Shown: positions 11,628 to 54,172 of the stretch, piece by piece
Layout of the letters: every line of letters begins with the position of its first letter
How positions within the stretch are numbered: the stretch's first letter is position 1
Program-made: the position numbers and the translations under genes
The notes under the pieces: generated by a model
Told to the model about the DNA's origin: nothing
Seen by the model: the letters and a program-made list of their open reading frames with translations, nothing else
Database searches by the model: none
From: a virus
Lineage: Duplodnaviria; Heunggongvirae; Uroviricota; Caudoviricetes
Direction: 5' to 3' (one strand)
Virus record (IMG/VR): IMGVR_UViG_3300040801_001158
Location: 73,359 to 137,358 of that record
Length of the DNA stretch: 64,000 nucleotides

Positions 11628-11628
11628 C

Positions 11629-11703: not shown

Positions 11704-11725
11704 ATTTTTAAATAAGGAAACAAGA

Positions 11726-11962: not shown

Positions 11963-11975
11963 AGTATACTTAGGT

Positions 11976-12048: not shown

Positions 12049-12071
12049 CCTAAGTATATTTAAAAAAGTTG

Positions 12072-12100
12072 TTGACATTGTAGTTAAACCTTGATACAAT
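12072..12100 (+). promoter_or_regulatory. early promoter variant with TACAAT at -10
   Basis: ttgacattgtagttaaaccttgatacaat. Confidence 0.45.
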
Positions 12101-12109
12101 AGCTGCATG

Positions 12110-12345
12110 AATTGATAAACCAGTTACGAAGCAAAAGTAGTTCCTATAAACAACTATTCGGACTAATAATCCGAAGCCAATAATTACTACTCGCTTCATA
12201 CTTTAGAGGCAAAGACAGTTCCTATAAAAAAATTATTGTAAATTAAAATACTGTCCGCCTCAAAACTTTAGAGCCAAAAAGAGTTCCTATAAAAACTCAA
12301 CTTATGAAATTACTCTTCGGCTCAATTATTACTTGTAAGGATGAT
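12110..12345 (+). repeat. three tandem units of about 75 nt, each a hairpin with a conserved loop TCCTATAAA(A), in the 5' leader of the 607-aa gene
   Basis: gaggc-aaagacagt...actgtc-cgcctc versus gagcc-aaaaagagt...actctt-cggctc, compensatory. Loops agttcctataaaaa repeated three times. Confidence 0.5.
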
Positions 12346-12350
12346 ATATT

Positions 12351-14174: not shown

Positions 14175-14246
14175 ATCTGTAGCTGAGGGGATTAGCACTG
14201 CTTTTACACGGCAGATACGGCGGTTCGATTCCGCCCAGATCTACCA
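14173..14246 (+). tRNA. tRNA-Val (TAC), CCA encoded
   Basis: acceptor agatctg/cagatct, D-arm gct-gaggggatt-agc, anticodon arm ctgct-ttTACac-ggcag, T-arm ggcgg-ttcgatt-ccgcc. Confidence 0.65.
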
Positions 14247-14261
14247 TTTTTTGCAACTATA

Positions 14262-14738
14262 ATGAGAAGAAAAATCATGTTAAATTTAGAAGAGGTAATA
14301 CAATTTGTAAATAGTCAGGGTCCTAAAACTACTGTACACATTGGTTGTGACTCAGAAAGAGTTTCACGTCAGAAAGGTATGGTTGATTACAACTTAGTAG
14401 TCGTAGTTCACTTGGATGGTTCAAAAGGTTGTAAGATCTTTGGTGAAACCATTCGTGAAAGAGACTACGATCATAATAGGAAAAGGCCTTCAATGCGATT
14501 AATGAATGAAGTTATGAAAGCTTCAGAATTATATCTGAAATTGGCTCCTGAAATTATTGAGTACGAAACTTTTGTACACTTGGATATTAATCCAAATCCT
14601 AACGCTGGATCATCATGTGTGGTCACTCAGGCAATAGGATACATCAAAGGTACGTGCCAAATTGAACCTCTTGTAAAACCAAATGCATGGGCTGCAAGTT
14701 CAGCTGCAGATTGCTTTAAAAAAGTTGTGGGATTATAA
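14262..14738 (+). CDS. hypothetical protein (158 aa)
   Basis: ORF. Confidence 0.45.
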   Translation: MRRKIMLNLEEVIQFVNSQGPKTTVHIGCDSERVSRQKGMVDYNLVVVVHLDGSKGCKIFGETIRERDYDHNRKRPSMRLMNEVMKASELYLKLAPEIIEYETFVHLDINPNPNAGSSCVVTQAIGYIKGTCQIEPLVKPNAWAASSAADCFKKVVGL

Positions 14739-14754
14739 ATAACTAAAATAATTA

Positions 14755-14783
14755 TTGACATTTTGTTTTGATTATGTTATAAT
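14755..14783 (+). promoter_or_regulatory. early promoter-leader cassette
   Basis: ttgacattttgttttgattatgttataatagtctcataagttaataaaggaa. Confidence 0.55.
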
Positions 14784-14812
14784 AGTCTCATAAGTTAATA
14801 AAGGAATGCAAA

Positions 14813-15088
14813 TTGAAAACATTACGAGAATTTGTAAACTCAGATAAATTGCCAAAAGCCAAAGATAATAAAGATGGTACTTTTAGTTTTGGCCGAGGTG
14901 AAAAATATATTGTTACTGACTATTATGAAGGTACCAAAAATATAACTAAAGGTGTTGACTTGGTTGCCAAATACGTTAAGAGATATAACACTTACGATTC
15001 TTTTAAACGATATGAAGAACTGCAATATGATATTAAACAAAATAATGTTATGACCGAACGTGATTTTAAAATACAATCAAAGAGATAA
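14813..15088 (+). CDS. hypothetical protein (91 aa), apparent TTG start
   Basis: ORF after the cassette. Confidence 0.4.
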   Translation: MKTLREFVNSDKLPKAKDNKDGTFSFGRGEKYIVTDYYEGTKNITKGVDLVAKYVKRYNTYDSFKRYEELQYDIKQNNVMTERDFKIQSKR

Positions 15089-15133
15089 CTGCAATATCTC
15101 TATATTGTTCGGTGAAAATCTTATTAAACGAAT

Positions 15134-15210
15134 AGGGGTGTAGCTCCAATTGGTAGAGCGGCGCACTCCAAATGCGACGGTTGGGAGTTTGAATCTCTCC
15201 ACCCCTGCCA
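15134..15210 (+). tRNA. tRNA-Trp (CCA anticodon), CCA end encoded
   Basis: acceptor aggggtg/cacccct, D-arm gctc-caattggta-gagc, anticodon loop ctCCAaa, T-arm gggag-tttgaat-ctctc. Confidence 0.7.
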
Positions 15211-15217
15211 ATATAAC

Positions 15218-15294
15218 GCGGATGTGATGGAATTGGTATACGTACTAGTTTTAGAAACTAGGTTTTGTAGGTTCGAGTCCTACCATCCGCACCA
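15218..15294 (+). tRNA. tRNA with Leu anticodon TAG but class-I (short variable loop) architecture, CCA encoded
   Basis: acceptor gcggatg/catccgc, anticodon arm ctagt-ttTAGaa-actag, T-arm gtagg-ttcgagt-cctac. Confidence 0.5.
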
Positions 15295-22938: not shown

Positions 22939-23074
22939 AAGTTAAGAAGCAACTAAAAGCAAGAAATCTTTATATAAATAAGAAAAAACAAAGACAAATG
23001 ATTAAGACTGGTATGGCATTTACGATAATGTTATTGCTTACTATAGTATTGGTAAATATACTTTAAAACAAGTG

Positions 23075-23103
23075 TTGACATATTCTTCAGTTTATATTAT
23101 AAT
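23075..23103 (+). promoter_or_regulatory. early promoter-leader cassette
   Basis: ttgacatattcttcagtttatattataatagtctcataaattaataaggaataaattATG. Confidence 0.55.
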
Positions 23104-23131
23104 AGTCTCATAAATTAATAAGGAATAAATT

Positions 23132-23932: not shown

Positions 23933-24190
23933 ATGAACAAGTGTACAGACTGCACGTTCCATCACACCAACTCATCATATGACGGAGATAAAAAGTCTCA
24001 TTGTTATATGTTCAAAAACCGCGATTCTAATGATGCCTCTCATTGTTATATGTTCAAAAACCGCGATTCTAATGATGCCGGTGGTCAATTCAAATCAGTT
24101 AAAAATCCAGAATTGAAATGCACAAATGGAACATCTTTTGGTGTTCCGATTGGATTTGTGATGTCTGGTAAAGGTAGGAGTGTATTATGA
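23933..24190 (+). CDS. hypothetical Cys/His-rich protein (85 aa) containing a perfect in-frame 42-bp tandem duplication
   Basis: HCYMFKNRDSNDAS/HCYMFKNRDSNDAG encoded by a duplicated 42-mer. Confidence 0.45.
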   Translation: MNKCTDCTFHHTNSSYDGDKKSHCYMFKNRDSNDASHCYMFKNRDSNDAGGQFKSVKNPELKCTNGTSFGVPIGFVMSGKGRSVL

Positions 24191-26126: not shown

Positions 26127-27836
26127 ATGTTTGCAAGTTTAACAACAGATGCATATAAGCTTTTCCACAAAGAAGCATATCGCGATGGAATAACACAAGT
26201 ATATTCAAACTATACAAACCGCAGTGGCCGTCTGAGTAATATCACAAATGGTCAAGATGGTGTTGTATTTGTTGGATTACAATATTTCATTAAAGATTCA
26301 CTAATCAAAGCATGGAATGAAACATTCTTCAACGTACCCGAAGATGTGGCAATTTCATATCTTAGAAAATTCACAAAAGCATTGCTTGGTTTCGATTACA
26401 ATGTTGACCACTTTATTGCTTTACACAAACTTGGTTATTTACCAATTGAAATTAAAGCTTTACCAGAGGGTTCAGTAGTACCTTATGGTGTTCCACCAAT
26501 GACATTCAGGAACACTCACTCAGATTTTAATTGGCTGCCAAATTATTTAGAAACAGTAACTTCTACGGAACTCTGGGGAATCCAAACAAGCGCAACTACA
26601 AGTCGTGCATATTTGAAAAATACCAAGAAAATGTTTAAAGACATTGGTATTCCTGACGACCTATTATTGTTCATGAATCACGACTTTTCAATGCGTGGTA
26701 TGTTTGGTAAACAGGCATCTGCAATGAGTGGTTTTGGTCACCTGTGTGGTAGTGCCGGAACAGACACTTTACCTGCAATCATGTTTGCTGAAGAATATTA
26801 CAATGCTGATATTGAAAATGAATTAGTTGGTGTATCTGTACCAGCAACTGAACACAGTACAGCAACATCATTTATCATGTCATACGCTGAAGAGCATGGT
26901 GTATCTAAGCTTGAAGCTGAAATTGCATATGTTAAATACTTGTTTACAAAAGTTCCAACTGGTATTATGTCGCATGTATCAGATTCATTTGACTTCTGGG
27001 ATTTTGTTGAAAAAGGTCTGCCTCAGTTAAAAGATGCAATCATGGCTCGTGAAGGCAAGTTCGTTATTCGCCCAGATAGTGGTGACCCTGTTGAAGTTTT
27101 ATGTGGCCGTGAATTTAAAGTTGTCGAATCTAAAGAAGACGCAGTAGACACTTTAGACTCATATATTAGAGATAACCATGACCCATATGATTGTGGCATG
27201 GATGCTATTGATTATTTTTATATTGATGGAACAGCGTATAAAGTAACATATTCGCCAGAATTTAATCGACATGATAAAACTTATTATTATATTGATAACT
27301 ATAAAGACGACGTTACATATGCTACATTTGAAGAGATCACATTAACTGCTGAAGATAAAGGTTTAATCCAATGCCTGTATGAGCAATTCCCTGGTGGCGA
27401 AACTGAGAAAGGTTTCAAATTACTTGCTGACCAGATTGGTGCAATCTATGGTGACTCAATTACACTTGAACGTCAAGCAGAAATCTATGCAAGACTTATG
27501 GCAAAAGGTTTCGCTCCATTGGTTGTACTTGGTGTTGGTTCATATTCATATCAGTTCGTTACTCGTGACACTCACGGTTCAGCGGTCAAAGCAACTCATG
27601 TAGTCCGCAATGGCCAAGGTGTTGATGTTTTCAAAGACCCTAAAACTGACTCTAAGAAAAAGTCTGCGAAAGGTCTATTAAGAGTTGAATTTGAACACGG
27701 CCGATTTGTACTGTATGACCAACAAACACCTGAGCAAGAAACTGAAGGTCTGTTGGAAACCGTTTTCATTAACGGTGAACTGACAAGAGAAACTACTCTA
27801 AATGATATTCGTTCAAGAATCATCGAAGGTCTATAA
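26127..27836 (+). CDS. nadV: nicotinamide phosphoribosyltransferase (NAMPT/NadV family), 569 aa
   Basis: N-terminal TDAYKLFH resembles TDSYKVTH. HDFSMRGM and RPDSGDP motifs present. Confidence 0.7.
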   Translation: MFASLTTDAYKLFHKEAYRDGITQVYSNYTNRSGRLSNITNGQDGVVFVGLQYFIKDSLIKAWNETFFNVPEDVAISYLRKFTKALLGFDYNVDHFIALHKLGYLPIEIKALPEGSVVPYGVPPMTFRNTHSDFNWLPNYLETVTSTELWGIQTSATTSRAYLKNTKKMFKDIGIPDDLLLFMNHDFSMRGMFGKQASAMSGFGHLCGSAGTDTLPAIMFAEEYYNADIENELVGVSVPATEHSTATSFIMSYAEEHGVSKLEAEIAYVKYLFTKVPTGIMSHVSDSFDFWDFVEKGLPQLKDAIMAREGKFVIRPDSGDPVEVLCGREFKVVESKEDAVDTLDSYIRDNHDPYDCGMDAIDYFYIDGTAYKVTYSPEFNRHDKTYYYIDNYKDDVTYATFEEITLTAEDKGLIQCLYEQFPGGETEKGFKLLADQIGAIYGDSITLERQAEIYARLMAKGFAPLVVLGVGSYSYQFVTRDTHGSAVKATHVVRNGQGVDVFKDPKTDSKKKSAKGLLRVEFEHGRFVLYDQQTPEQETEGLLETVFINGELTRETTLNDIRSRIIEGL

Positions 27837-28588: not shown

Positions 28589-28888
28589 ATGAATTTATAT
28601 AAACAGTGTTTTGGTAGTGACTTTGAACTTGGTTTTGATTTAAACGAATTTCCATTTCTTGAAGATGTCAGTTATAAAAATGACGCTTGCCCATCATTCA
28701 TGTTTAAATCTGGTGATTCATACTACAGACTGTGGGTTGACTTTGAAAGTCACTATGACCGTGAAGAAGACATATGTAGATATAGTTTAAATCGTTACGA
28801 AGACGAAGAATTAAACGACCTTATTGAAAACATCAAAGACGCTGAATATTTTTCTGAGATGAAAGAATTTTTAAATAAATTAAAATAA
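28589..28888 (+). CDS. hypothetical acidic protein (99 aa)
   Basis: ORF. Confidence 0.45.
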   Translation: MNLYKQCFGSDFELGFDLNEFPFLEDVSYKNDACPSFMFKSGDSYYRLWVDFESHYDREEDICRYSLNRYEDEELNDLIENIKDAEYFSEMKEFLNKLK

Positions 28889-28891
28889 GTG

Positions 28892-28920
28892 TTGACATAT
28901 TCTTATGAATGTGATATAAT
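28892..28920 (+). promoter_or_regulatory. early promoter-leader cassette
   Basis: ttgacatattcttatgaatgtgatataat. Confidence 0.55.
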
Positions 28921-28951
28921 AGCTACATAAAATAAGGAAAGGAATTAAAAC

Positions 28952-29137
28952 ATGAGTCAAATAGCTGAAGGTTTCAAAGATAAAGGTTTAGTTGGTAGCG
29001 AAGTAACTTGGTCTACTAGTTATGAACCCGATGAAAATCAAAAAGCTGAAATTGAGCGTAAAGAAAAACTTCGTAAAGAATTTCAACCTGCTGCAAAACG
29101 TCTTGCTGCTGAAATGTTCGCGAAAATGGGAAAATAG
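28952..29137 (+). CDS. hypothetical protein (61 aa)
   Basis: ORF. Confidence 0.4.
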   Translation: MSQIAEGFKDKGLVGSEVTWSTSYEPDENQKAEIERKEKLRKEFQPAAKRLAAEMFAKMGK

Positions 29138-31571: not shown

Positions 31572-31887
31572 AGTAAATTTAGAGTTTAACGATGATAGTG
31601 CAGTCGCAGACTGGAACGCAAAACAGCAATATTTAGATGATCTTGCAATTGCTAAAGAATGCGCAAGAAAGGGAATGGTATTCACATTTTCCATATCAAC
31701 ATCAATCCAATTTCAGTTGATACGTGTAGGAATAGTAAAAGGCGATATTGAACCTTTAACATTTAAATGGAAAGGCAAAGAAATTGCCATTAATCACCAA
31801 GGACAAGTATCCGAGTGGCCAGAAGGTTTCTTTGATGAATTGATGAATATAACAAAATTTTTAATTGGTTGGTCAAATAATAGTTGA
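31564..31887 (+). CDS. hypothetical protein (107 aa)
   Basis: ggagaaagcaATG. Confidence 0.4.
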   Translation: MIKVNLEFNDDSAVADWNAKQQYLDDLAIAKECARKGMVFTFSISTSIQFQLIRVGIVKGDIEPLTFKWKGKEIAINHQGQVSEWPEGFFDELMNITKFLIGWSNNS

Positions 31888-31912
31888 CATATTCCTTTGA
31901 TTAGATTATAAT
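31884..31912 (+). promoter_or_regulatory. early promoter-leader cassette
   Basis: ttgacatattcctttgattagattataat. Confidence 0.55.
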
Positions 31913-31942
31913 AGATCTATAAATTGAAAAAGGAAATACATT

Positions 31943-32344
31943 ATGAAGATTAAAACTGAAGCTGTTGTTAATGTTGCTGGAACTGTAAGTCTTTCAGAAA
32001 CCGCTTTTAACGACATACCAGATTTTGAGCCGACTATTGGTTGGTTTTCGAACAAATACAACGCGGCTGGTTGGTTAGTAACTGACCTTGATAATGGTGA
32101 AATTGATTGGTTAGCATCTGAAGGTATTTCCTATAATGAAATTGCAACAATTAAAAGAACTATTACTGACGGTGGAAGAACTTCTTTATGTAAATTTGAT
32201 TTGGTAAAAGGTACTTACGCTTTCCTTGATAATGAAGTTCTTAACGAAACTGGTGAAATAAAGTTTGATAGGAAAACTTATTTCAGACGGTTTAAAGTTG
32301 AGAATTCTCAACTTGCGCTAGAAACATTTGGAATTGAATTATAA
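31943..32344 (+). CDS. hypothetical protein (133 aa)
   Basis: ORF. Confidence 0.45.
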   Translation: MKIKTEAVVNVAGTVSLSETAFNDIPDFEPTIGWFSNKYNAAGWLVTDLDNGEIDWLASEGISYNEIATIKRTITDGGRTSLCKFDLVKGTYAFLDNEVLNETGEIKFDRKTYFRRFKVENSQLALETFGIEL

Positions 32345-32394
32345 TGGCAAAAGTATTTTTTATTAGTGATGTTCATTTTGGACATAAGTTTTAA
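32344..32394 (+). pseudogene. duplicated 5' fragment (16 codons, MAKVFFISDVHFGHKF*) of the metallophosphatase gene. It is left upstream of the inserted HNH gene.
   Basis: Near-identical to the start of the gene at 33280 (MAKVFFISDCHF...). Confidence 0.5.
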
Positions 32395-32425
32395 CACATT
32401 ATAAATAATAGTAAATAATAATAAT

Positions 32426-33280
32426 GTGGAATATACAATTATGCCAAAAGTTAATAAATTGTGCCCAGTATGTGATAAAACATATTTTACGTACAACACA
32501 AATCAAAAAACGTGCTCTGTGAGCTGTATGGGTATATATCAGACAGGAAAAAATAATCCAAATTATGGAAACAATTGGAGCGAAGAACAAAGACAAAAAG
32601 CTTCCAATTATTTTAAGAGTATATCTCATAAAATCTCTGAAAGAGTTAAAGAAGATTGGGCAAATGACGAAGAAAGGAAGCAGCGAGCTTCAGAGTTAAT
32701 GTCTCAAACTATGTCTCAAATGATTGGTGAAAAAAACCATTTTTATAATAAAACGCATACAGAAGAAACTAAAAATGTGATAGGAAACAAATCAAAAAAT
32801 AAATTTACTATTGAATATAACAATTCCTATCGAAAAACTATGGAAGATAGGGGTCATTGGATTCCATTAGATCAAAAACCAGAAAAAGAAATATATTTTA
32901 AAGAGTCCAATTGGATTAATAAAATGTTTGATATAGTCCCTAATGGAATTCAACTCTTGAATGAACATGGAATGTTTCACTGCTCGTTAAATAAAAACGG
33001 AGTTGTTAGGGATCATATTGTTGGTAGAAAACATGGTTTTGAAATTAAAGTGTTTCCTGAGATTATGAGACACCCATGTAATTGCCAGATCATTACACAT
33101 AAAGAAAATATCTCTAAAGGTCAAAAAGGCAAAAACAGACCGGATAGAGATATTGAGATAAAGGAATTATTTGAAAGAATTAAGTCATATAACGGAAAGT
33201 GGCTTGAACAAAAATTAGTATTATCACTTATAAAGGATTATGAAAGTGGTAAACGTTGGAAATTAAGGAGGAGTCCCTAA
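32426..33280 (+). CDS. HNH homing endonuclease with N-terminal zinc finger and NUMOD-like repeats, 284 aa
   Basis: CPVCDK...CSVSC zinc finger; NPNYGNNWSEEQRQKAS; HNH region HIVGRKHG...HPCNCQIITHKEN. Confidence 0.6.
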   Translation: MEYTIMPKVNKLCPVCDKTYFTYNTNQKTCSVSCMGIYQTGKNNPNYGNNWSEEQRQKASNYFKSISHKISERVKEDWANDEERKQRASELMSQTMSQMIGEKNHFYNKTHTEETKNVIGNKSKNKFTIEYNNSYRKTMEDRGHWIPLDQKPEKEIYFKESNWINKMFDIVPNGIQLLNEHGMFHCSLNKNGVVRDHIVGRKHGFEIKVFPEIMRHPCNCQIITHKENISKGQKGKNRPDRDIEIKELFERIKSYNGKWLEQKLVLSLIKDYESGKRWKLRRSP

Positions 33281-33808
33281 TGGCTAAAGTATTTTTTATT
33301 AGCGACTGCCATTTTCGGCCATAGAAATATTTGTTCATACCGACCGAGATTCTCGTCAGTCGACGAACATGACAATTTAATCTATGACAACATATTGTCT
33401 ACAGTCGGCAAACGTGATACATTGTGGATGTTGGGTGATACTTGCTTTGTGCAAGAAAGATTCGCTATGATTCAAACCATTAGTGAAAAGATTGGTCACT
33501 TCCATTACATCCCTGGTAATCATGATACAGACAATGGCAATTGCCAAACAATGTATAAGGAAATGGTCAAACGTGACTTCTTTTCCAAGACTGGGTCTAT
33601 GTTTAAATACAAAGGTTTCTGGTTAACCCATCCTCCAATCCATCCAACTGAACTTCGTGGTTGTCCTAACATACATGGACATACGCACGGTGTTCAGATG
33701 AGACTTGAGAATGGTGACCTAGATAAGCGCTATGTTAACGTCTGTGTTGAACATACAAATTACGCTCCAATAAACTTTGAACTTATCAAGGAAATGCAAT
33801 ATGACTAA
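33280..33808 (+). pseudogene. calcineurin-like metallophosphoesterase (Ser/Thr phosphatase-like) gene disrupted by a +1 frameshift (extra C near 33316) just after codon 12
   Basis: Motifs FFISDCHFGH (GDxHG), IPGNHD and GHTHGV. The N-terminal 12 codons are in one frame and the remainder (ORF 33395..33808) in the next. Confidence 0.5.
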
Positions 33809-34031
33809 AGATAACTTCTTTCAATACAACGAGGGCACAAGACACATTGAGCCGTGCGAAAAAGACGATGCAGACTATGCAAGTATCGAATTGTATAACA
33901 AGCTGCTACATGCACATGAAAAACTACTTACTGAAAATCTTGAATTGATTAACATCATTGAAGATTCAGGTGTAGACGTAGAAGAAATTTTAGAAGCAAA
34001 ACAATCAAACTAAACTAAAGGAAACTATATA

Positions 34032-34892
34032 ATGCAACAACTACCAATCAAAACAATCGTAAGCTCTATCATAGGTTTTATTGGCCTTGTCCTTTTATGG
34101 TTAAGCTGGTATACCGTACAAGAAGGTCATGTTGGAATCGTAAAAACATTCTCAGAAGGAAGCTCTCAAGTTGGACCAGGGCTGAACTTTAAAATTCCTT
34201 TGGCTCAAACTGTTGAAGAAATTGAAGTTCGTACTCGAAAGAATGAAGAAAATATGACATCAAGTACTGCTGAACAGATGCCTGTTACAGTAAGTGTGTC
34301 AGTTAACTGGACCGTAGATAAAGCAGCTGCGTTGGATTTGTTTAAACAATATGGTGGACTATCTCAGTTTGAAAATCGTATTTTAGACCCACGATTCCGT
34401 TCAGCTACTAAGGATGTTATTCCAAAGTTTACAGCTGAACAGTTAATACAAGACCGTAGTAATGCTATCATGCGAATTGAAGCTATGCTTATTGAAGAAA
34501 TGGCTCCATTCCCAGTCAAGGTTGATAATATTCAAATTGAAAATATTACCTTGCCACCAAAGTACTTGCAATCAATTGAAACAAAACAGACTGCTAAAAA
34601 CTTAGCTGATGCTGAACAGTTTAATCTTAATAAACAAGCCCTGGTTGCTCAGCAAGGTGTTAACTTAGCAAGAGCACAAGCTGACGGTATTAACCTAGTT
34701 GCTCAAGCTGAAGCAAATTCAATTCGATTAAAAGGTGAAGCTGAAGCTGACTCAATTCGAGCAAAAGCTGCAGCACTAAAAAGTAACCCACTTATTGTTG
34801 ACTTGACTGAAGCGCAGCAATGGAATGGTCAATTACCAACAACCATCCTTGGTGAAGGTGGTATGCCAATCCTTGACATGCGCAAAAATTAA
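34032..34892 (+). CDS. SPFH/band-7 (prohibitin/HflK/C-like) membrane protein, 286 aa
   Basis: N-terminal TM helix, then VQEGHVGIVKTF...GPGLNFKIPLAQTVEEIEVRT, an SPFH signature. C-terminal coiled coil. Confidence 0.55.
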   Translation: MQQLPIKTIVSSIIGFIGLVLLWLSWYTVQEGHVGIVKTFSEGSSQVGPGLNFKIPLAQTVEEIEVRTRKNEENMTSSTAEQMPVTVSVSVNWTVDKAAALDLFKQYGGLSQFENRILDPRFRSATKDVIPKFTAEQLIQDRSNAIMRIEAMLIEEMAPFPVKVDNIQIENITLPPKYLQSIETKQTAKNLADAEQFNLNKQALVAQQGVNLARAQADGINLVAQAEANSIRLKGEAEADSIRAKAAALKSNPLIVDLTEAQQWNGQLPTTILGEGGMPILDMRKN

Positions 34893-35504: not shown

Positions 35505-35861
35505 ATGAAAACATTTGAAAACACAATCAAAACATCAGGTCAAGGTCTTTGGTCTCGAGTTAAAAAATCTGTCAAGGTTACAAGCCTTGACGTTTCAATA
35601 TACACCGACATGGACACTGGCGAAGAAAACTTCGGTGAACTTCGGGTTTATTTCGATACAAAAACGTGGAATACTCAAATATCAGGTCTTATCTATACAG
35701 ACCGTGGGTTCATTGAAACTTTACAAAAGAAATTAGATGAAGTTGGTCTTGCTGGTTTTAACGTCGATTACAGCGAGCAAGGCATGCAAGGTTATGATTA
35801 TGTTAGTTTAGACATTGGTTCTAAATTTATTAAAAGTTGGAGAGAATATGAAGCCAAGTGA
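35505..35861 (+). CDS. hypothetical protein (118 aa)
   Basis: ggaaactatattATG. Confidence 0.45.
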   Translation: MKTFENTIKTSGQGLWSRVKKSVKVTSLDVSIYTDMDTGEENFGELRVYFDTKTWNTQISGLIYTDRGFIETLQKKLDEVGLAGFNVDYSEQGMQGYDYVSLDIGSKFIKSWREYEAK

Positions 35862-37134
35862 TATTATAAAGTTGTTAGAGTCTGACAATAGTCGACTCTT
35901 TAAAGAAGAAACAATCCGTAATCATATTGATGTTGAAGACTTTCAAAAAGGTCTTCTGCTAGCATTGGATAGTATGATTACGTTTGGCGTTGTGAAGAAC
36001 ATTCCAGTTCAAACTGAAGATGGTCCAGGGCTATCTTTTGAAGAATTTAAAGTCCTCGCTGACAAATTAAGGCTACGACAACTGACGGGCCACGCTGCTC
36101 GCGATGAGATTCAAAGAGTAGCCAATATAGCAACTGCTGACGAATGGAATTACTGGTATTCTCGCATCCTTTTAAAAGACCTTAAATGCGGCACATCTGA
36201 AAAAACAATTGCAAACGCACTCAAGGGAACTGGACATAAATTTAAAGTTCCTGTCTTTACTTGCATGCTTGCGCACGATGGTGCAAAACATGAAAAGAAA
36301 ATCAAAGGCAAATGCTTCTTAGAATACAAATATGATGGCGTTCGTGTCGTTGCTATTGTTCAAAATGGTGTTGCAACACTGCATAGTCGTAACGGTAAAA
36401 TATTCAACAACTTTCCTCATATCAATATGGCACTCTCTAATACTGACCTTGAAGGCATGGTTATTGATGGTGAAGTAATGAGTGAAAACTTCCAAAAACT
36501 TATGACTCAAGTCAATAGAAAATCTGAGGTTGATACAAGTGATTCATATCTTGCCGTGTTTGATATGTTACCACTTGAAGAGTTTAAAAAAGGTAAATCT
36601 TCAAGAAAAGCTATTGACCGTTTTGTTGCTATGAGAGAAACTTTCAATGGATACAGTGATTGTATTAAACCAGTTGACGCGCATTTAACTGACTTGGATA
36701 CTGAAGACGGCCAACAGTTTTTTAAACAATTTAATAAAGAAGCAATTGATAAAGGCTACGAAGGTTTAATGATTAAACCATTTGATGAAGTCTATACATG
36801 CAAACGTTCAACTGCTTGGTTGAAAATGAAACCTTTCATTGAAGTTACACTTGAGATTGTTGCATTGGAAGAAGGAACTGGTAAATATGAAGGTATGCTT
36901 GGTGCAATTGTTGGTCACGGTATTGATGATGGTTTGGAAATTAAAGTTAACGTAGGCTCTGGTTTATCAGATAAACAGCGCGAAGAAATTTGGGCAATGC
37001 AAGACGAGACACTTGGTCAACTCATGGAAGTCCGTGCAGATGCTGTAACTAAATCTCGTGATGGTGATTTTTACAGTTTAAGATTTCCGCGTTTCAAAAC
37101 ATTCCGCGGATTTACAAAAGGCGAGAAAATATAA
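35848..37134 (+). CDS. ATP-dependent DNA ligase (428 aa)
   Basis: Motif I EYKYDGVRV (KxDGxR adenylation lysine); ribosome-binding site ttggagagaatATG. Confidence 0.7.
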   Translation: MKPSDIIKLLESDNSRLFKEETIRNHIDVEDFQKGLLLALDSMITFGVVKNIPVQTEDGPGLSFEEFKVLADKLRLRQLTGHAARDEIQRVANIATADEWNYWYSRILLKDLKCGTSEKTIANALKGTGHKFKVPVFTCMLAHDGAKHEKKIKGKCFLEYKYDGVRVVAIVQNGVATLHSRNGKIFNNFPHINMALSNTDLEGMVIDGEVMSENFQKLMTQVNRKSEVDTSDSYLAVFDMLPLEEFKKGKSSRKAIDRFVAMRETFNGYSDCIKPVDAHLTDLDTEDGQQFFKQFNKEAIDKGYEGLMIKPFDEVYTCKRSTAWLKMKPFIEVTLEIVALEEGTGKYEGMLGAIVGHGIDDGLEIKVNVGSGLSDKQREEIWAMQDETLGQLMEVRADAVTKSRDGDFYSLRFPRFKTFRGFTKGEKI

Positions 37135-46139: not shown

Positions 46140-47447
46140 TTAGAATAAGTTTGCAACTATAACCTTACGGTAGTATACGTTGGTATTCGCAGTAAGTGCA
46201 CCATTATCGAATGCAGCACCACCTTTAGCGAATGGGTTAGCAACCATACCATAACGGGTCTTGAAACCGATTTTAGGTTGGAAACTATTCTCGCCAACTG
46301 CGCGAACCATTTGTAATGGAACGTATGGGCAATAGAATAAACCAGCATCGAATGAACTTGAACCTTTATAACCTACAACTAAGTAGTTAGATCCAGCGAA
46401 CGGGTCGATGTAAACTCTATAACGTCCGTTAAGAACACCGGCAAATGTATTACCTGTATCATCAACATCTAGTGCATTTGAGTTTAAAGCAGGAGTATAA
46501 TCTAATACACCAGCCATTTGCAATGCCGAAGCAACATCAGAAGAACAAATAACTAGGTTACCTTTTCCACGTCTTGTTTCTTTAGCAATTTGGTTTGCTT
46601 CTTGCTCGATTTGGAACATCAAGCCTTTGAACTTCTCTACAGACCAACGACCATTTGCGTCAACATCCAAGTCGAATGTACCAGCAACTGCAGTATTTGT
46701 AGCACCTACTTTAGAAGTAGAGTAAATTGTACGAACAACTTCACGGTTGATTTCATTTAAGATTTCACCTTGAAGAATGTTTGCTAACTCAGTTTCTGCA
46801 TCAAGACCATGAACAGCTTTAAGATCTTGAGCAAGCTCAGTTGTATATTCTGCTTTCAATGCGCGTGATTTCGCAGCAACGGTAACTTTCTCGATAGAGA
46901 ACGCCATTTCTGCGTAGTTAGTACCAGCGCCATCACCTAGTGCTTCAGCAGCAGCAGTTTCCATACCTGTACCAAAGTTAGATGAAGTTGGTAAAGTACC
47001 TGTTTGAGTACCTGTACCAGAGAATGCAGTATTTGCTTCGTTATAGAAAACTTCAGCGCCAGTCTGCGAAGTAGCACGTGAACGCATTGCGAAGATAAGT
47101 CCTGTAGGACCAGTCATCGGTTGAACACCACATATATCATATGCGATCATATTCGGCATTGCACGGCGTACTAACGAGATCAATACTGGGTCGTAACCAG
47201 CAGTAGGACCACCTGCAGCTGAAGCAGCACCAAAGCCACCTGTGCCGGCGTCGTTAGCATGAGTTTCTGATAACAATGATGTCATGTTAGCAGATCTGTC
47301 ACCAGTCTCAGCGAGAGCACGTTCAGTGTTCTCAAGAATGGTTGCAGTTACAGATTTTCTGTGTGCGTCTTTGATTGGTGAAAAAGATTCGTGCTCAAGA
47401 ATTGGGCCCCATTTTTCCACAAGTTTTTGACTGTTTGACTCAGACAT
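46140..47447 (-). CDS. major capsid protein (gp23-like), 435 aa
   Basis: Last gene of the T4-order morphogenesis block (protease-scaffold-MCP). Gly/Ala-rich. Preceded by a TATAAATA late promoter. Confidence 0.55.
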   Translation of the reverse strand: MSESNSQKLVEKWGPILEHESFSPIKDAHRKSVTATILENTERALAETGDRSANMTSLLSETHANDAGTGGFGAASAAGGPTAGYDPVLISLVRRAMPNMIAYDICGVQPMTGPTGLIFAMRSRATSQTGAEVFYNEANTAFSGTGTQTGTLPTSSNFGTGMETAAAEALGDGAGTNYAEMAFSIEKVTVAAKSRALKAEYTTELAQDLKAVHGLDAETELANILQGEILNEINREVVRTIYSTSKVGATNTAVAGTFDLDVDANGRWSVEKFKGLMFQIEQEANQIAKETRRGKGNLVICSSDVASALQMAGVLDYTPALNSNALDVDDTGNTFAGVLNGRYRVYIDPFAGSNYLVVGYKGSSSFDAGLFYCPYVPLQMVRAVGENSFQPKIGFKTRYGMVANPFAKGGAAFDNGALTANTNVYYRKVIVANLF

Positions 47448-47500
47448 TTAGTCTTCTCCTTGTTGAGTAAATTTTACTTTATTGTTATTATTACTTAATT

Positions 47501-47508
47501 ATTTATAA
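47501..47508 (-). promoter_or_regulatory. T4-type late promoter (TATAAATA on the minus strand) upstream of the capsid gene
   Basis: Plus-strand tatttata, about 55 nt upstream of the start at 47447. Confidence 0.5.
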
Positions 47509-47525
47509 AAATCAGTTTCCTGACT

Positions 47526-48440
47526 TTATTGCTTTTTCTTGCGATTGAGCGCTTCTACGAGAGCATTGATTGAACCATGATCTGAGGCAGGGCGTTTAAA
47601 CTCCGTGTCTTCAGTTATGATTGCAGCTTCTTCATCAACAACTTTCTTAACAGAATTTTTTTCTGAAAAGAATGATTCTTTAAGTGTAGTTAAATTACTA
47701 GAATATTCTTCAATATCACTATAGTTTAGGTTTTCAGAAAGTATCTTTAGACGTTCACGTTGTGACACGGTTAAGCTTTCAGTTAATTCGTCAAAAACTT
47801 TTTCAGCTTTAAGAGAAGCAATTTCTTCAGAAAGTCTAATGTTTTCACCAATTACTTTATTAGATTTTTGAGATAAAGAATTAACTTCTTCTTCTAAATC
47901 AGTAACAACGTCTAATGTGCTTTCGTCAATGTCGATATTATGTTCAGAGAACAAATTCTTTAAACCGCCCATAAGAGATTCAGCCATGTCAACTTTAATA
48001 CCAGATTCTATAGCAATTTCATTTTCTTTCATCCATTCATCAACTACATATCCCAAATATGAATCGAGATCTTCTACTATAGTATCAATCTTTATATCAA
48101 TTTGTTCTTGTAAATCTGTTTGGAGTTCTTCTCTCAAAGACTCTTCAATTTTTTGTGTTTCGATTGAAACTTGTTCGTGCAATGCAGCTTCAAAAACAAC
48201 ACTTACTTTTTTCTTAAAATCTTCAGAAAGATCCATACCTTCAAACATGTTTTGAATTGATTCTTCAACTACATATTCTCCATCACCATCGATTTCTTCA
48301 GATTCTTTCTTAGTAACTTTTTTAAGTTTTTCATCATTATTCTTTTTATCTACCACTTTATCTGTTCCACCTTCTGGTGTTACAGGACCAGCAACTGTAG
48401 ATTGTTCGTCGTCAGAGACAAACTTCTTACCTTCAGCCAT
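47526..48440 (-). CDS. prohead scaffolding protein (gp22-like), 304 aa
   Basis: Highly acidic, coiled-coil-rich; position between protease and MCP. Confidence 0.5.
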   Translation of the reverse strand: MAEGKKFVSDDEQSTVAGPVTPEGGTDKVVDKKNNDEKLKKVTKKESEEIDGDGEYVVEESIQNMFEGMDLSEDFKKKVSVVFEAALHEQVSIETQKIEESLREELQTDLQEQIDIKIDTIVEDLDSYLGYVVDEWMKENEIAIESGIKVDMAESLMGGLKNLFSEHNIDIDESTLDVVTDLEEEVNSLSQKSNKVIGENIRLSEEIASLKAEKVFDELTESLTVSQRERLKILSENLNYSDIEEYSSNLTTLKESFFSEKNSVKKVVDEEAAIITEDTEFKRPASDHGSINALVEALNRKKKQ

Positions 48441-48469
48441 ATTAATTCTCCTTTCTTGGTTAGTATGAA

Positions 48470-48477
48470 TATTTATA
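48470..48477 (-). promoter_or_regulatory. late promoter TATAAATA
   Basis: Plus-strand tatttata upstream of the scaffold gene. Confidence 0.45.
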
Positions 48478-48483
48478 TAAATG

Positions 48484-49161
48484 TTAATTTCTTAAAGAGC
48501 GAATAAAACTTTCGAACATTTTAGCAGCCTGAACTTCGTCAATCTTTCTAACTGTTCTCTTATACTGTTTTTTCGCTTCCTTTTCAATTGATTCTACAAC
48601 TCGTTGAGCAACCCAATTACCTGATGTAATATCATAATAATATTCAACATTTTCCATGATGCCATTTACAAAGGCATTAGGAGCTGATGGATCAGTTACA
48701 ATGTCAACCGTAGATAAATGGAAATCGTTTTGTACTTCCATGATGCCATCTTTAGACTGTTTTACAGAACCAAGACCGCGAGTAGAAACACCTATTTTAA
48801 CACCTTCATCAATAAATGTTTTTACAATTTCTCCCATTGGTGTACCGAGTATTTTTGCTTTACCATAGAAATCATTTCCATCTCTACGCATTTCTGTGAT
48901 TAAATGTGAAACACGATCGGCATTAATTGACGGCCCTTCAGGGTGATTAAGTTCACCTAGAGCTCTTGCTTTATTAATGTATTCGTCGGTATACCTAACC
49001 ATTTCTTTTTCGAGAATTGTACTAGGATATATTCTGCCATTACGATTTTTAAGGTCGCCTTGCATGAAGATACCTTCAATATAATATGATTTTTTGCCAG
49101 ATTCGTTGGCTTCAGTGATAACCTCACAAGATTCTGTAAGTACCTCTGTTATAAGTCTCAT
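48484..49161 (-). CDS. prohead protease (gp21-like), 225 aa
   Basis: Position and size (T4 gp21 is 212 aa). Confidence 0.45.
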   Translation of the reverse strand: MRLITEVLTESCEVITEANESGKKSYYIEGIFMQGDLKNRNGRIYPSTILEKEMVRYTDEYINKARALGELNHPEGPSINADRVSHLITEMRRDGNDFYGKAKILGTPMGEIVKTFIDEGVKIGVSTRGLGSVKQSKDGIMEVQNDFHLSTVDIVTDPSAPNAFVNGIMENVEYYYDITSGNWVAQRVVESIEKEAKKQYKRTVRKIDEVQAAKMFESFIRSLRN

Positions 49162-49184
49162 ATTCTTTCCTTTTTGTATTTATT

Positions 49185-49192
49185 TATTTATA
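49185..49192 (-). promoter_or_regulatory. late promoter TATAAATA
   Basis: Plus-strand tatttata upstream of the protease gene. Confidence 0.45.
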
Positions 49193-49227
49193 CTATATAT
49201 AAAATACTTAGTATCTATAACTTTTTG

Positions 49228-49884
49228 TTATAATGCTTCTCTGGCAAATCCCACAATTTCGTCAAATCCTGATTTATCAGTCATTAGTATTTGTTCAAAA
49301 TTCTTACGGTTTTTATCATCTAAATCTTTCATTAAATCGTTTAAAAGTTTTGCATCTTGTGCACTAATTTTAACAGTGTCGTTATTATCAAGTTTTAAGT
49401 TACCCGCTTTAAAACTTTCTTCTAAGCTTTCATAATATGGGTTAAAATCCATTTCATCTTCACCTGACTTATACATTTCGCCTTCAGCATAAGCGTGAAG
49501 TCCTTGCATCTTATCAAATACGACAGCAAGTTTATTTTGATACCAGGCTTCAACTTCATTTCCTTCTTCAAGAAAATCAACTATTTCTTCAGCTGCGTAT
49601 TGAATAAAATGTAATTGTCTTATTAGCATTTCATTTGTTTCGTAACTTTCTTTCATTGGATTTGTTTTATTTTTTACCGTGTAAGCTTTATCATACGATG
49701 TAGAATCTTGCCCTTTTTCATAATCTGCAAGCCGCTTCTTTTTATCAATAGTACCTTTAAATTGGCTTTCTGGCGCTACTGGGTGAGGAGTAACTTCAAC
49801 TTCATGCTGATCTACAAATCTTTGTTCTTCAGGAGATCTCGCTTTAGCAGATACTTCTGAAATTAGACTTTTAAAATTTTTCAT
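49228..49884 (-). CDS. prohead core protein (gp67/gp68-position), 218 aa, acidic
   Basis: Position between portal and protease. Confidence 0.3.
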   Translation of the reverse strand: MKNFKSLISEVSAKARSPEEQRFVDQHEVEVTPHPVAPESQFKGTIDKKKRLADYEKGQDSTSYDKAYTVKNKTNPMKESYETNEMLIRQLHFIQYAAEEIVDFLEEGNEVEAWYQNKLAVVFDKMQGLHAYAEGEMYKSGEDEMDFNPYYESLEESFKAGNLKLDNNDTVKISAQDAKLLNDLMKDLDDKNRKNFEQILMTDKSGFDEIVGFAREAL

Positions 49885-49915
49885 TTGTATTCCTTGATTA
49901 ATATATCATTTTAAC

Positions 49916-49923
49916 TATTTATA
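49916..49923 (-). promoter_or_regulatory. late promoter TATAAATA
   Basis: Plus-strand tatttata. Confidence 0.4.
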
Positions 49924-50031
49924 ATTAAAATATTTTTTTATAGTCGTACTATATATTCGTTTTTCTCAAGTAATCTTTACGAGATTGTTTAGTAAACATG
50001 ACATCATAGTTTGTCTTGCCACCCTGTACCA

Positions 50032-51600
50032 CTAAAAATCTGTCTTCTCATTGTTACCTTCATTTTCATCACCTTGGTCGTCCATTGCTTCTTTAGCTGC
50101 TTCGTCTCTGATTTCTTTCTGAATTTCTCTATAATCATCTTCAGACATCTGTAGAATATTACGAACAACCCAATATTTAGAATAATATACGCCAACATAC
50201 TCGTCAATATCTCGAAGTGTGTTTAATCTTTCACGTGTGATTTCTGTTTCTTTTAATTCTTCAAAGTAATTATCTTTAATAAAATTATATTTTATGGCTT
50301 TACGTATTTCTTCAAACTCTTCAGGATCAACTATACCTTTAAGAATAAGTTGTTTTTCTAATATGTGACTAAATATTTCAGAAAATCTTGAGCGCAACCT
50401 ACGAATAAATTTACTAAACTTCAACTCGTCGCGTGTAATTTCAGATACACGACCAAACGAATGCATTGTTTCAGGTTCTAATCTTGAAATAGGAACCTTT
50501 AATGATTTATATAATTTGCGTTGGAAGTATTGTAAGTTTTCATCTGTGCTTAGTGATTGGGCTGATCCACCAGCCAACGTGTCAACTTCAGTTGACCTTT
50601 CTCCACCTCTACGTGGAAACCAAAAATCTTCAGTCATAGTCATCATTTTACGAGCATCGGTAATTTCACCAGTACCCGAATTATATTGTAGTTTGTTTTT
50701 ATGGCGAGTCATCATATCACGAAGATATTGTTCGGCTTTTGACTTTGGTAAGTTACCAACGTCAATATAAAAAATTCTTCTTTCAGGAGCACGGGTTAAC
50801 GTATAGATAACAGTTGCGTCTTCAAGCATTCTTAATTGGTTTAGTGGTTTGATTGCTGGGTGAAGATTCGAAAGAACTAATGAATTATTTTCATTCATAA
50901 TTCCAGATGTAACTCTTGCAATTGAATCTTTTGATATTCTGTAACCAATAGAATTTACACTCATACTTCCACTGCTTGCAGATCCTGCTTGTTGTGCGGT
51001 ACCAAACCCGTTGTCAGAATATAAGTAATATTCGTTTTTTATTTTCTTTGCTGCTATAGCAGACGAGTCTTGAATATTCTTTTTGTCCATTTCTCGTACC
51101 AATTTAATCTTACGAGGATCAACATATCTTAATTCAGTAATACCCCTTTTAAGATCATTTTCATCAATTATAATATGATAATTAAGTCTTCCATCAACAT
51201 AAAATTTATTGAATATATCATATGATTTATGAGTAAATTCCATTAAGCCTAGAATTTCATCAAACTCTTCAATTATTCTTTCTTTAACTTTATCTGGTAA
51301 TTCAACATCGTCTAATACAATTTCGATGACTTTATCATCAGTGTTAACATTAATTGCTTCGTTTACTACTTCATCAATCGCTTGAGATATTTCGGGCTGC
51401 ATTGCCATGCCACGATACTTCGTGATAAGTTCAGATTCAGTTTTTGCTGCACCTTCCATATCCAAGGACATACCATAGAAACCACCTACGGCATTACCAA
51501 TGGAAATAGCACCATCATCATTATCTGGTTCCGCGAAGGATACTGGTGCAGAACCAGTATCCTTCTCGTCTCGTCTAATCTCAAATCCAAAAATACGCAT
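50032..51600 (-). CDS. portal protein (gp20-like), 522 aa
   Basis: Size (T4 gp20 is 524 aa) and position between the tail tube and prohead genes. Confidence 0.55.
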   Translation of the reverse strand: MRIFGFEIRRDEKDTGSAPVSFAEPDNDDGAISIGNAVGGFYGMSLDMEGAAKTESELITKYRGMAMQPEISQAIDEVVNEAINVNTDDKVIEIVLDDVELPDKVKERIIEEFDEILGLMEFTHKSYDIFNKFYVDGRLNYHIIIDENDLKRGITELRYVDPRKIKLVREMDKKNIQDSSAIAAKKIKNEYYLYSDNGFGTAQQAGSASSGSMSVNSIGYRISKDSIARVTSGIMNENNSLVLSNLHPAIKPLNQLRMLEDATVIYTLTRAPERRIFYIDVGNLPKSKAEQYLRDMMTRHKNKLQYNSGTGEITDARKMMTMTEDFWFPRRGGERSTEVDTLAGGSAQSLSTDENLQYFQRKLYKSLKVPISRLEPETMHSFGRVSEITRDELKFSKFIRRLRSRFSEIFSHILEKQLILKGIVDPEEFEEIRKAIKYNFIKDNYFEELKETEITRERLNTLRDIDEYVGVYYSKYWVVRNILQMSEDDYREIQKEIRDEAAKEAMDDQGDENEGNNEKTDF

Positions 51601-51642
51601 TTATTGATTCACCTTATTCATTGTTTTATTTATTTATCAAGA

Positions 51643-52176
51643 TTAGGTAGTAGGAATTCCAGTGTTACCTTCTACACGCCATAAGTCGTATTGGAAAGTT
51701 ACAGTGAATTCTTCAATTGCGTCAACCTGACTCCAGTCCATTGCAATATCTGAAATCGTTATTGGAAACAAACCTTCAAATACGTACGAACGTAATGGCG
51801 AGCCATCTTTACTAAACTGAGTGATTATAGCATTTGATTTATAATCTCTAGGTAACGCACGCACATTGCTATCATGTGTATTAATTGCATTCGACCAAGC
51901 TTCCATTGCGTTCCGAATAGCAAAATCTTCATCGTTAATTACAGTTACAGTCCAATCATCAAATGTTCTATCGCCTGCGTATTTTATTTGCCGACCGAAA
52001 TAAGGGACAGTAAACTGACCTACGTTTGATGCTGGAATACCAGCAACTTTAACCATAAATGGCACTTTAAAATCAGCCTCAGGACTTACTGGATTCAGAA
52101 TTTGAACTTGGAATAGAGTTGGGCGAGCGCCACCTCCAGAAAGTTCAGATTTAAATTGATTTATATTAAAACTCAT
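51643..52176 (-). CDS. tail tube protein (gp19-like), 177 aa
   Basis: Position and size (T4 gp19 is 163 aa). Confidence 0.5.
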   Translation of the reverse strand: MSFNINQFKSELSGGGARPTLFQVQILNPVSPEADFKVPFMVKVAGIPASNVGQFTVPYFGRQIKYAGDRTFDDWTVTVINDEDFAIRNAMEAWSNAINTHDSNVRALPRDYKSNAIITQFSKDGSPLRSYVFEGLFPITISDIAMDWSQVDAIEEFTVTFQYDLWRVEGNTGIPTT

Positions 52177-52204
52177 GTTATTGTGTCCTTAATTTATATT
52201 CTTA

Positions 52205-54103: not shown

Positions 54104-54152
54104 GTTTGTTCTCCTTTAACTTTTGTCATTTTTTTGTTTTTGTATCATTTGT

Positions 54153-54160: not shown

Positions 54161-54172
54161 ATATTATGACAC

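Follow-up and report, generated by a model that had tools for sequence, protein, structure and literature searches.

The translational bypass of bacteriophage T4 gene 60 was long (for 35 years) treated as an isolated curiosity, and its only relatives, to our knowledge, are the MobA cassettes in topoisomerase genes. The T4 MobA/gene 60 arrangement was reportedly recognized as a mobile bypass cassette by Bonocora et al. in 2011. The T4 MobA element carries a replacement target segment and a bypass that blocks nicking by MobA, and a 2022 survey terms the bypass cassette 'unique' (bioRxiv 10.1101/2022.08.31.505936). Here, we analyzed a 64,000-nucleotide (nt) stretch of DNA from a Caudoviricetes virus (the window; positions 73,359–137,358 of IMG/VR record IMGVR_UViG_3300040801_001158), in which a mobile element encoding an HNH-type homing endonuclease interrupts the gene of a calcineurin-like phosphoesterase (the phosphatase). 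As in T4, an HNH element sits within an open reading frame (ORF) at a metal-binding catalytic motif, although the target is a phosphoesterase here and the topoisomerase II large subunit in T4. The element brings its own copy of the start of the phosphatase gene, which contains one extra C. We consider it quite likely that this C creates an element-borne +1 frameshift site (UUU CGG) that protects against the element's own endonuclease; both frameshifting and immunity are inferred, whereas the sequences directly show how the element is built, that a close relative lacks it, that the extra C recurs and is conserved at the nucleotide level, and that the gene is otherwise intact.

The phosphoesterase start is present twice, in copies spaced 936 nt apart (32342–32379 versus 33278–33315, 84% identity; family D9 of a repeat search). 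The locus contains the following features, given by position in the window.

32344–32394, + strand: start of the resident phosphoesterase gene, left stranded as a mini-ORF of 16 codons, MAKVFFISDVHFGHKF and a stop, from ATG 32344 to TAA 32394 (sequence; phosphatase profile E = 7e-5)
32387–33323, + strand: inserted mobile element, ~937 nt (repeat spacing 936 + 1; absent from the relative L001; block common to L014 and L117 ends at CATA)
32391–32419, + strand: promoter-like site at the element 5' end, TTAACA-17-AATAAT, 10/12 (consensus match only; equivalent in L014, TTGACT-17/18-TATAAT)
32441–33280, + strand: endonuclease gene, 279 amino acids (aa) plus stop, ATG 32441 to TAA 33280 (ORF, profiles)
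33265–33273, + strand: Shine-Dalgarno sequence AAGGAGGAG, lying inside the endonuclease ORF at its 3' end and 8 nt ahead of the downstream ATG (kept in L014, L117 and L015)
33272–33307, + strand: predicted 5' stem-loop, AGUC.CUAAUGG ... UUAUUAG.GACU (same fold in the window and L014)
33280–33315, + strand: element-borne replacement N-terminus, codons 1–12 in frame 0, MAKVFFISDCHF; holds the Asp and His of motif I (sequence; codon-position test)
33313–33319, + strand: proposed +1 frameshift site UUU C GGC, with the extra C at 33316 (sequence, family comparison, PMC5009743)
33317–33808, + strand: phosphoesterase body in the +1 frame, GHRNICSYRPRF... to TAA 33806–33808, with GD, GNHD and GHTH intact (sequence, profiles)
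33322–33324, + strand: frame-0 stop TAG, two codons beyond the proposed shift site (sequence)

The stranded mini-ORF retains an intact motif I (D-x-H-x-G-H) and terminates two codons past the insertion point. Read in frame 0 from ATG 33280, the downstream copy gives MAKVFFISDCHFRP and stops at TAG 33322–33324, and the +1 frame is open from 33281 to TAA 33806–33808. Removal of C 33316 (CATTTT(C)GGCCAT) yields a 175-aa protein that matches the phrog_547 phosphoesterase end to end (E = 7e-50) and contains all calcineurin-like metallophosphoesterase motifs in order (D-x-H, GD, GNH[DE] and GH-x-H), with Pfam scores slightly under gathering (23.7 vs 27 for PF12850 and 21.4 vs 21.5 for PF00149). Gene callers annotate the phosphatase as a truncated 126-aa product only. 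An earlier note on this DNA had described an HNH gene inserted in a metallophosphatase gene with a duplicated, altered 5' flank, a stranded copy upstream, a full downstream gene that keeps GNHD and GHTH, and an extra C that sets codons 1–12 out of frame with the body; each of these features is borne out. The duplication it gave as 16 codons is real but shorter, the copies sharing 14 codons through Gly-His. The 45 nt common to both copies differ by seven substitutions and the extra C; six of the substitutions fall in the final 21 nt and a single one in the 24 nt before them. The clustering noticed earlier thus holds in the window but not family-wide, where the copies differ throughout (158/396 positions in the 5' part and 98/396 in the motif part across 22 loci), and clustering at the 3' end of the repeat is peculiar to this window.

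The uninterrupted arrangement is provided by L001, an IMG/VR contig whose phosphatase is 82% identical to that of the window, reads MTRLFFISDVHFGHKNICSYRPRF without a break, and is accompanied by no endonuclease gene. A homologue of the window's upstream gene (52% identical) occupies the same position in L001, directly before the phosphatase. The comparison with a relative lacking the HNH gene, which the earlier note had proposed, therefore reveals the uninterrupted target behind the same upstream gene. Five further relatives (phosphatase 74–80% identical) also start MARLFFISD[VI]H[FL]GH. Because L001 is uninterrupted there, we place the insertion point immediately behind the second His codon of motif I; the inferred uninterrupted allele of the window is ATTAGTGATGTTCATTTTGGACATAAGAATATTTGTTCATAC, and the upstream copy is evidently the resident gene start. 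The element junctions are ambiguous within the shared CATA (32383–32386 and 33320–33323). Between them lie, besides the HNH gene, a promoter-like site, translation signals (ribosome-binding site and start codon) and replacement codons 1–14 with the extra C. The element is sporadic at a fixed site: L001 lacks it, and in 57 distinct loci an endonuclease homologue immediately precedes a phosphoesterase gene.

A single-base indel in a metagenome assembly raises the possibility of a sequencing or assembly error, or of an ordinary tandem duplication unrelated to the endonuclease. Where the earlier note spoke of a C-run, the sequence has an isolated C flanked by TTTT and GG, outside any homopolymer, and a homopolymer error is unlikely for this reason. 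Two other assemblies, JGI contig L012 (58 kb; over 7.9 kb) and the independently built Logan assembly of SRR7428126 (L013; over 2.8 kb), are 100% identical to the window, C included, so that the base is the same in three assemblies, and the same C recurs in two other genomes. The duplication, which the earlier note had thought might turn up in relatives without an endonuclease, has the endonuclease between the copies in at least 22 loci, and 50 loci are interrupted at the same motif. An error or an unrelated duplication has next to no chance of explaining the locus.

The two other genomes bear on the origin of the altered flank. L014, a distant phage contig (endonuclease 57% and phosphatase 52% identical to those of the window), has the same layout, with a stranded MSCVWLISDTHFGHKS ending in a stop, a promoter-like TTGACT-N17/18-TATAAT, the endonuclease gene, and GGAGG followed by ATG; its downstream copy is MSCVYLISDCHF, with the same extra C and then the body in the +1 frame. 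L117, likewise a distant phage (endonuclease ~57% identical), has a third cassette with the same extra C. A block of 21 nt, ATTAGCGACTGCCATTTTCGG, which includes the C, is invariant in the window, L014 and L117, whose endonuclease genes are 64–70% identical and phosphatase bodies 61–66% identical at the nucleotide level. The segment from the ribosome-binding site through the start codon is also nearly invariant in these cassettes, and codons 2–6, which lie between the conserved blocks, vary and resemble each genome's own upstream copy. TTT C GGT likewise occurs in L052 and L084. Because the 21 nt are invariant across diverged cassettes, the frameshifted flank is conserved at the nucleotide level and travels with the element. 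An exact scan of IMG/VR for AGCGACTGCCATTTTCGGCCAT returned zero matches.

The earlier note had suggested the opposite order, with ordinary homing first and local, in-place mutations, including the C and possibly conferring immunity, afterward. The window copies, nearly identical in the first 24 nt and different near the junction, would suit such an order, but the same 21 nt and C stand within unrelated flanking sequence in L014 and L117. Moreover, the element-borne copy is only 60–75% identical to the resident copy throughout, family-wide, as in the MobA replacement segment, and the near-identical first codons of the window are better explained by re-copying between the repeats, as reported for MobA. 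In-place recoding of the target is very unlikely, and the altered flank with its extra C evidently belongs to the mobile element instead of having arisen by mutation in this genome after homing.

Insertion of the element strands the first 14 resident codons as a dead-end mini-ORF, for which the element compensates by supplying, from its 3' end, translation signals (ribosome-binding site and start codon) and a replacement N-terminus. This replacement would also rebuild the endonuclease target at the right-hand junction, and because it would do so, the element-borne copy carries the extra C between the Phe12 and Gly13 codons, 6 nt from the right junction where the replacement N-terminus meets the resident body. 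By analogy with MobA, the extra base would break the DNA target and so protect the element from its own enzyme. Initiating at 33280, ribosomes would read MAKVFFISDCHF and meet the rare CGG in the A site with UUU in the P site. The peptidyl-tRNA-Phe would then slip from UUU to UUC, possibly helped by re-folding of the upstream stem-loop, and reading would continue with GGC CAU AGA to give the full 175-aa enzyme, MAKVFFISDCHF followed by GHRNICSY..., while non-shifted ribosomes would stop two codons later.

The proposed site resembles known +1 frameshift sites. UUU_Ynn is +1-prone in bacteria, influenza PA-X uses UCC_UUU_CGU, and prfB and Ty1 shift at CUU_UGA_C and CUU_AGG_C, respectively (PMC5009743). 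In the window, the P-site UUU can re-pair in the +1 position as UUC (33313–33316), the A-site CGG would be slow, and a frame-0 stop follows soon after. By codon usage within the window, CGG ranks second-rarest among the sense codons (1.8 per 1000), and none of the 25 phage tRNAs has an anticodon reading CGG, the tRNA-Arg being ACG and UCU. Among other cassettes, L017 has CUU AGG G, near the Ty1 heptamer, and L055 and L057 have UUU UAA, with a stop in the A site as in prfB. Unlike prfB, the window lacks a Shine-Dalgarno-like stimulator 3 nt upstream, and frameshifting would here be corrective, rescuing the gene from the indel of a selfish element, as opposed to regulatory or dual-product.

Frame or function might instead be restored by transcriptional slippage or editing, by splicing of the element as an intron, or by trans-complementation with the 16-aa upstream peptide. 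The upstream mini-ORF does keep motif I and native translation signals, and the T-run before the C could in principle slip, but four T are far shorter than known slippage sites. No group I/II intron or other Rfam RNA family was found in 31800–34100 at E up to 1, and only ~45 nt are non-coding at each end of the element. Neither splicing nor complementation would give a role to the coding constraint on the replacement N-terminus described below, and the body frame has no start codon before 33395. Restoration by any of these routes is highly doubtful, and +1 frameshifting at UUU CGG remains our preferred reading.

Two further candidates were rejected. Stop-codon readthrough from the endonuclease into the phosphatase body would give a fusion without D-x-H, and L014 does not share the arrangement; ribosomes initiating internally, in the body frame, would find their first start codon only at 33395. 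The endonuclease ORF and the +1-frame body do share a reading frame in the window, with only the TAA between them (33278–33281), which is not kept in L014 and is probably a chance arrangement.

A survey places the window among many similar cassettes. An alignment of 42 endonuclease homologues led to 66 metagenome and 32 IMG/VR loci (~100), which were scanned with purpose-built endonuclease and phosphatase profiles. A phosphoesterase gene lies directly downstream of the endonuclease homologue in the 57 distinct loci mentioned above (60 including three added later), and in most loci the phosphatase profile match begins only at position 10–13, right after D-x-H. A stranded resident start, M...[ST]D-x-H-x-G-H with a stop 0–10 codons on, is present in at least 22 of the loci with enough upstream sequence. 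Defining interruptions by rebuilding D-x-H-x-x-H across the break, we found the downstream motif I interrupted in 50 distinct loci, which are distributed by number of skipped nt as follows.

1 nt: 18 loci
4 nt: 3 loci
5 nt: 10 loci
6 nt: 6 loci
7 nt: 3 loci
8 nt: 2 loci
9 nt: 1 locus
10 nt: 2 loci
11 nt: 1 locus
22 nt: 2 loci
26 nt: 1 locus
28 nt: 1 locus

Nine loci are uninterrupted, and L042 (shared with L051), whose endonuclease gene is heavily degraded, was left unclassified. Integrity of the endonuclease gene shows no association with the presence of an interruption (Fisher p = 0.39).

The interruptions have the anatomy of recoding sites. All 18 one-nt cases read UUU-C/U or CUU-N (UUU C GGN in five, CUU C GGC in one, CUU A GGG in one, UUU U GGN in six, UUU U AAU in two, and three others), with CGG in the A site in six, UGG in six, UAA in two and AGG in one. 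In gaps of at least 4 nt, a stop codon directly follows the take-off codon in 31 of 32 cases, and AGG does so in the remaining one. The take-off and landing triplets match at positions 1–2 in 19/32 longer gaps and 16/25 distinct inserts (binomial p = 5e-10 and 2e-9, respectively, against a generous null of 0.125). Examples are CUU UGA CUU (L016), CUA UAG CUA, ACU UG ACU (L031), GCC AG GCG (L015), AUC UAGCGAGG AUC and GGU UAGCCUUCGGGCUAACUAA GGU, the last of which holds the gene 60 hairpin discussed below. In-frame inserts (6 or 9 nt) always hold a stop, which means that translation is blocked in every case unless the insert is skipped, and skipping it restores the exact motif I spacing throughout.

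The shorter of these gaps recall the synthetic 'stop-hops' that Weiss et al. are said to have obtained in E. coli in 1987. As in those constructs and in the Magnusiomyces mitochondrial bypass elements, matched codons flank a stop across short non-coding gaps (CUU UGA CUU, CUA UAG CUA and ACU UGACU in family members); unlike the synthetic ones, the family cases would be natural, phage-borne and linked to a homing endonuclease, and the window itself is of the +1 type. A review knows of no natural in-frame stop-hops (PMC5009743).

The longest gaps resemble the gene 60 bypass. In L019, L024 and L022, gaps of 19–25 nt combine take-off from a Gly codon with a stop and a hairpin capped by a tetraloop (UGACC-GAGA-GGUCA in L022). 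In L019 (~3400–3450), L024 (~3340–3390) and L067 (~1110–1165), the Gly codon is followed by UAGCCUUCGGGCUA, 14 nt identical to the take-off hairpin at the start of the coding gap in T4 gene 60 (L114, 2803–2852), within gaps of 19–23 nt vs 50 in T4; the L024 gap reads GGU-UAGCCUUCGGGCUAA-19 nt-GGU. The 14-nt hairpin has more than 120 matches in IMG/VR, too common to inform alone, and its design, a stop codon plus a cUUCGg tetraloop, leaves one free base pair. Because the 14-mer is common and these constraints allow convergence, we do not claim common descent with T4.

It seems reasonably probable that the window is one of a large, apparently undescribed family of homing-endonuclease cassettes, each with a replacement start and a programmed recoding signal. 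The signals would make up a natural series, all at the same codon position of a single enzyme, from +1 slips through 4–11-nt stop-hops, the first natural ones, to 19–28-nt bypasses of the gene 60 type. Full-text literature searches found no description of the cassette; coverage was incomplete, and an earlier description may exist elsewhere.

The interrupted phosphatase could alternatively be a pseudogene, a dispensable gene killed by endonuclease invasion or sloppy repair, with the C as an inactivating lesion that also blocks re-cleavage. Frame 0 stops after 14 codons, gene callers recover only the truncated product, and homing can be recent, leaving little time for decay. However, the interrupted genes that are complete on their contigs (39/39) are single ORFs of 151–205 aa with exactly one lesion, always in motif I, and with catalytic motifs retained (GD in 39, GNHD in 38, GHxH in 39). 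The bodies are intact even beside decayed endonuclease genes: that of L077 has two or more frameshifts, those of L028 and L038 have a single one, and those of L043, L063 and L110 are truncated at the 5' end. Translation signals (ribosome-binding site and start codon) also persist in the element, as does an N-terminus that is subject to coding constraint: replacement and resident N-termini differ 42, 34 and 113 times at codon positions 1, 2 and 3, respectively (p = 9e-14); 81 codon changes are synonymous and 41 non-synonymous, and 175/216 residues are identical. As the differences fall mostly at third positions, the replacement N-terminus has evolved as a coding segment, in the reading frame that runs up to the interruption. 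The specific slip- and hop-site anatomy of the lesions and the invariance of the 21-nt block across diverged cassettes also speak against a dead gene. The ratio of non-synonymous to synonymous substitution rates (dN/dS) between cassette-bearing pairs was usable only for L030–L049 (0.11 for the body), as dS was saturated in most. Inactivation is unlikely, and of the two outcomes that the earlier note offered for the frameshift, loss of the phosphatase or a need for recoding, the comparative evidence favours the second.

In the predicted 5' stem-loop, which the resident copy lacks, the overlapping stop and start codons are paired with the Ile-Ser-Asp codons, the Asp codon marking the end of the 3' arm. 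Its pairing is improved by two of the seven substitutions that distinguish the window's downstream copy from the upstream one (GCA>GCT and AGT>AGC). When the 48 nt ending at the Asp codon were folded for the downstream copy and the resident upstream copy of the same locus in 22 loci, the mean folding energy was −10.1 kcal/mol downstream vs −3.7 kcal/mol upstream (Wilcoxon p = 1e-4), and the composition-corrected z was −1.7 vs +0.3 (p = 8e-4). A 5' stem-loop in gene 60 has been proposed to drive forward movement (bioRxiv 10.1101/2024.12.09.627546); the element stem-loop may act likewise, or it may control initiation through translational coupling.

Several observations weigh against recoding as self-protection. 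UUU-Y sites are known to shift by a few percent only in the absence of stimulators, so that output could be low. Of the longer gaps, 13/32 have no codon match at positions 1–2, and the stem-loop of the window taken alone is not significant against shuffles (z ~0.2), support coming from the family-wide paired test. The L012 and L013 assemblies may come from related samples. Five loci (L026, L033, L053, L021 and L058) pair an apparently intact endonuclease with an uninterrupted phosphatase, and the interruption is thus not obligatory; because the two copies in L026 differ by substitutions only, immunity may sometimes arise without a recoding insert. The bodies may also have been selected as uninterrupted genes until recent homing, MobA insertions being inferred to be mostly recent (bioRxiv 10.1101/2022.08.31.505936). 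As the constraint may partly predate insertion, the intactness of the bodies is strong but not conclusive evidence.

Set beside the T4 MobA/gene 60 cassette, the present family shares an element-borne target replacement that is diverged yet nearer to the resident sequence than to other cassettes, and a downstream ORF whose start overlaps the 3' end of the endonuclease ORF. Both have a translation-blocking insertion beside the insertion site, at the element 3' end, that ribosomes must skip and that in T4 blocks self-nicking, and L019, L024 and L067 share the identical UAGCCUUCGGGCUA take-off hairpin after a Gly codon. Other features differ. The present endonuclease has no detectable similarity to MobA (tblastn without T-even matches; comparison with the T4 mobA region), and the whole N-terminus is duplicated and replaced here, as opposed to a gene split into two functional halves. 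The insert is 1 nt, with a +1 shift, in the window vs 50 nt in gene 60, and 1–28 nt in the family vs ~50 nt in MobA cassettes; the window lacks the ~50-nt gap with matched GGA codons, stop and take-off stem-loop. No nascent-peptide signal is evident here, although no dedicated look for one was made. Judged from these sequences, the family appears to work like the T4 MobA/gene 60 cassette but is not a member of it.

Free-standing phage homing endonucleases provide a second comparison, including MobE in nrdA of phage Aeh1 and the Seg and Mob enzymes of T4 (PMC2988022). These are likewise sporadic among related phages, insert beside or inside a conserved gene, and bring new translation signals for the downstream part. 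They differ in leading to split-protein assembly or intergenic insertion, and none has been reported with a duplicated, frameshifted gene start.

An unrelated endonuclease lineage in an unrelated target gene shows the T4 logic in ~50 natural variants, with gaps of 1–28 nt. If our reading is correct, these variants would provide a comparative series for what makes a ribosome slip, hop or bypass, and would include natural stop-hops, hitherto known only from synthetic constructs. They would be evidence that selfish endonucleases have time and again used the flexibility of the ribosome to shield themselves while sparing the host gene, and recoding as self-immunity would be a general homing-endonuclease strategy rather than a peculiarity of T4. 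Because annotation pipelines call such genes as truncated fragments (126 aa here), databases do not reveal the class.

The endonuclease of the window combines a Cys pair at its N-terminus with two nuclease-associated DNA-binding modules of the NUMOD3 type (Pfam E = 2.3e-10, two stretches) and a C-terminal candidate HNH-type motif (D191-H192...N214...N223), and it matches the phrog_314 homing endonuclease (E = 7e-5). Searches with the endonuclease gave no significant match in a PDB sequence search or Foldseek and no match in NCBIfam, and megablast of the region against GenBank phages gave none. The only GenBank endonuclease homologues (26–39% identical) are in jumbo Eneladusvirus phages, in tRNA clusters without an adjoining phosphatase, and the best GenBank phosphatase homologues are at most 45% identical. 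By tblastn against 50,697 phage records and by megablast, no GenBank phage, and no cultured one, was found to carry the cassette.

In L027 (also L089 and L090; ~3300–3390), the start codon behind the ribosome-binding site is put out of frame with the Thr-Ser-Asp codons by a run of seven T where six would fit (ATG TCC GAA GTA TTT TTT T ACT TCG GAC); translation here may require recoding twice, or else initiation further upstream, at a start that overlaps the endonuclease ORF. L030 and L049 have nearly identical replacement N-termini and +1 sites and 80% identical phosphatase bodies, with endonucleases only 42% identical, which suggests that the endonuclease gene was replaced, or evolves very fast, within a conserved cassette.

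The upstream gene and the stranded start share an operon promoter.

31884–31912, + strand: operon promoter TTGACA-17-TATAAT, 12/12, driving the upstream gene (31943–32344) and the stranded start (promoter/leader repeat families D1–D3)

It belongs to a promoter-plus-leader family, TTGACA-17-TATAAT followed by ATAGATACATAAATTGAGGAAAGGAATTAAAT and ATG, present in 14–16 copies at window positions 688–41735 (e.g., 23048–23118, 28874–28970 and 31857–31942) before many + strand genes, the phosphatase operon among them. The phage has no close relative in GenBank. Its 25 tRNA genes, including Phe-GAA, Arg-ACG and Arg-TCT, are clustered on the + strand at 2441–15294, and an ORF inside the cluster (2899–3555) has a weak endonuclease-profile match (E = 0.002). 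The window further encodes a nicotinamide phosphoribosyltransferase (26127–27836) and a DNA ligase (35815–37134), and carries myovirus structural genes on the minus strand (46140–55345; major head, portal, tail sheath and terminase-like protein). A perfect 42-nt tandem duplication lies at 23996–24079, and the 15-nt unit AGTATTTGATACATC occurs four times at the end of the window (63938–63997).

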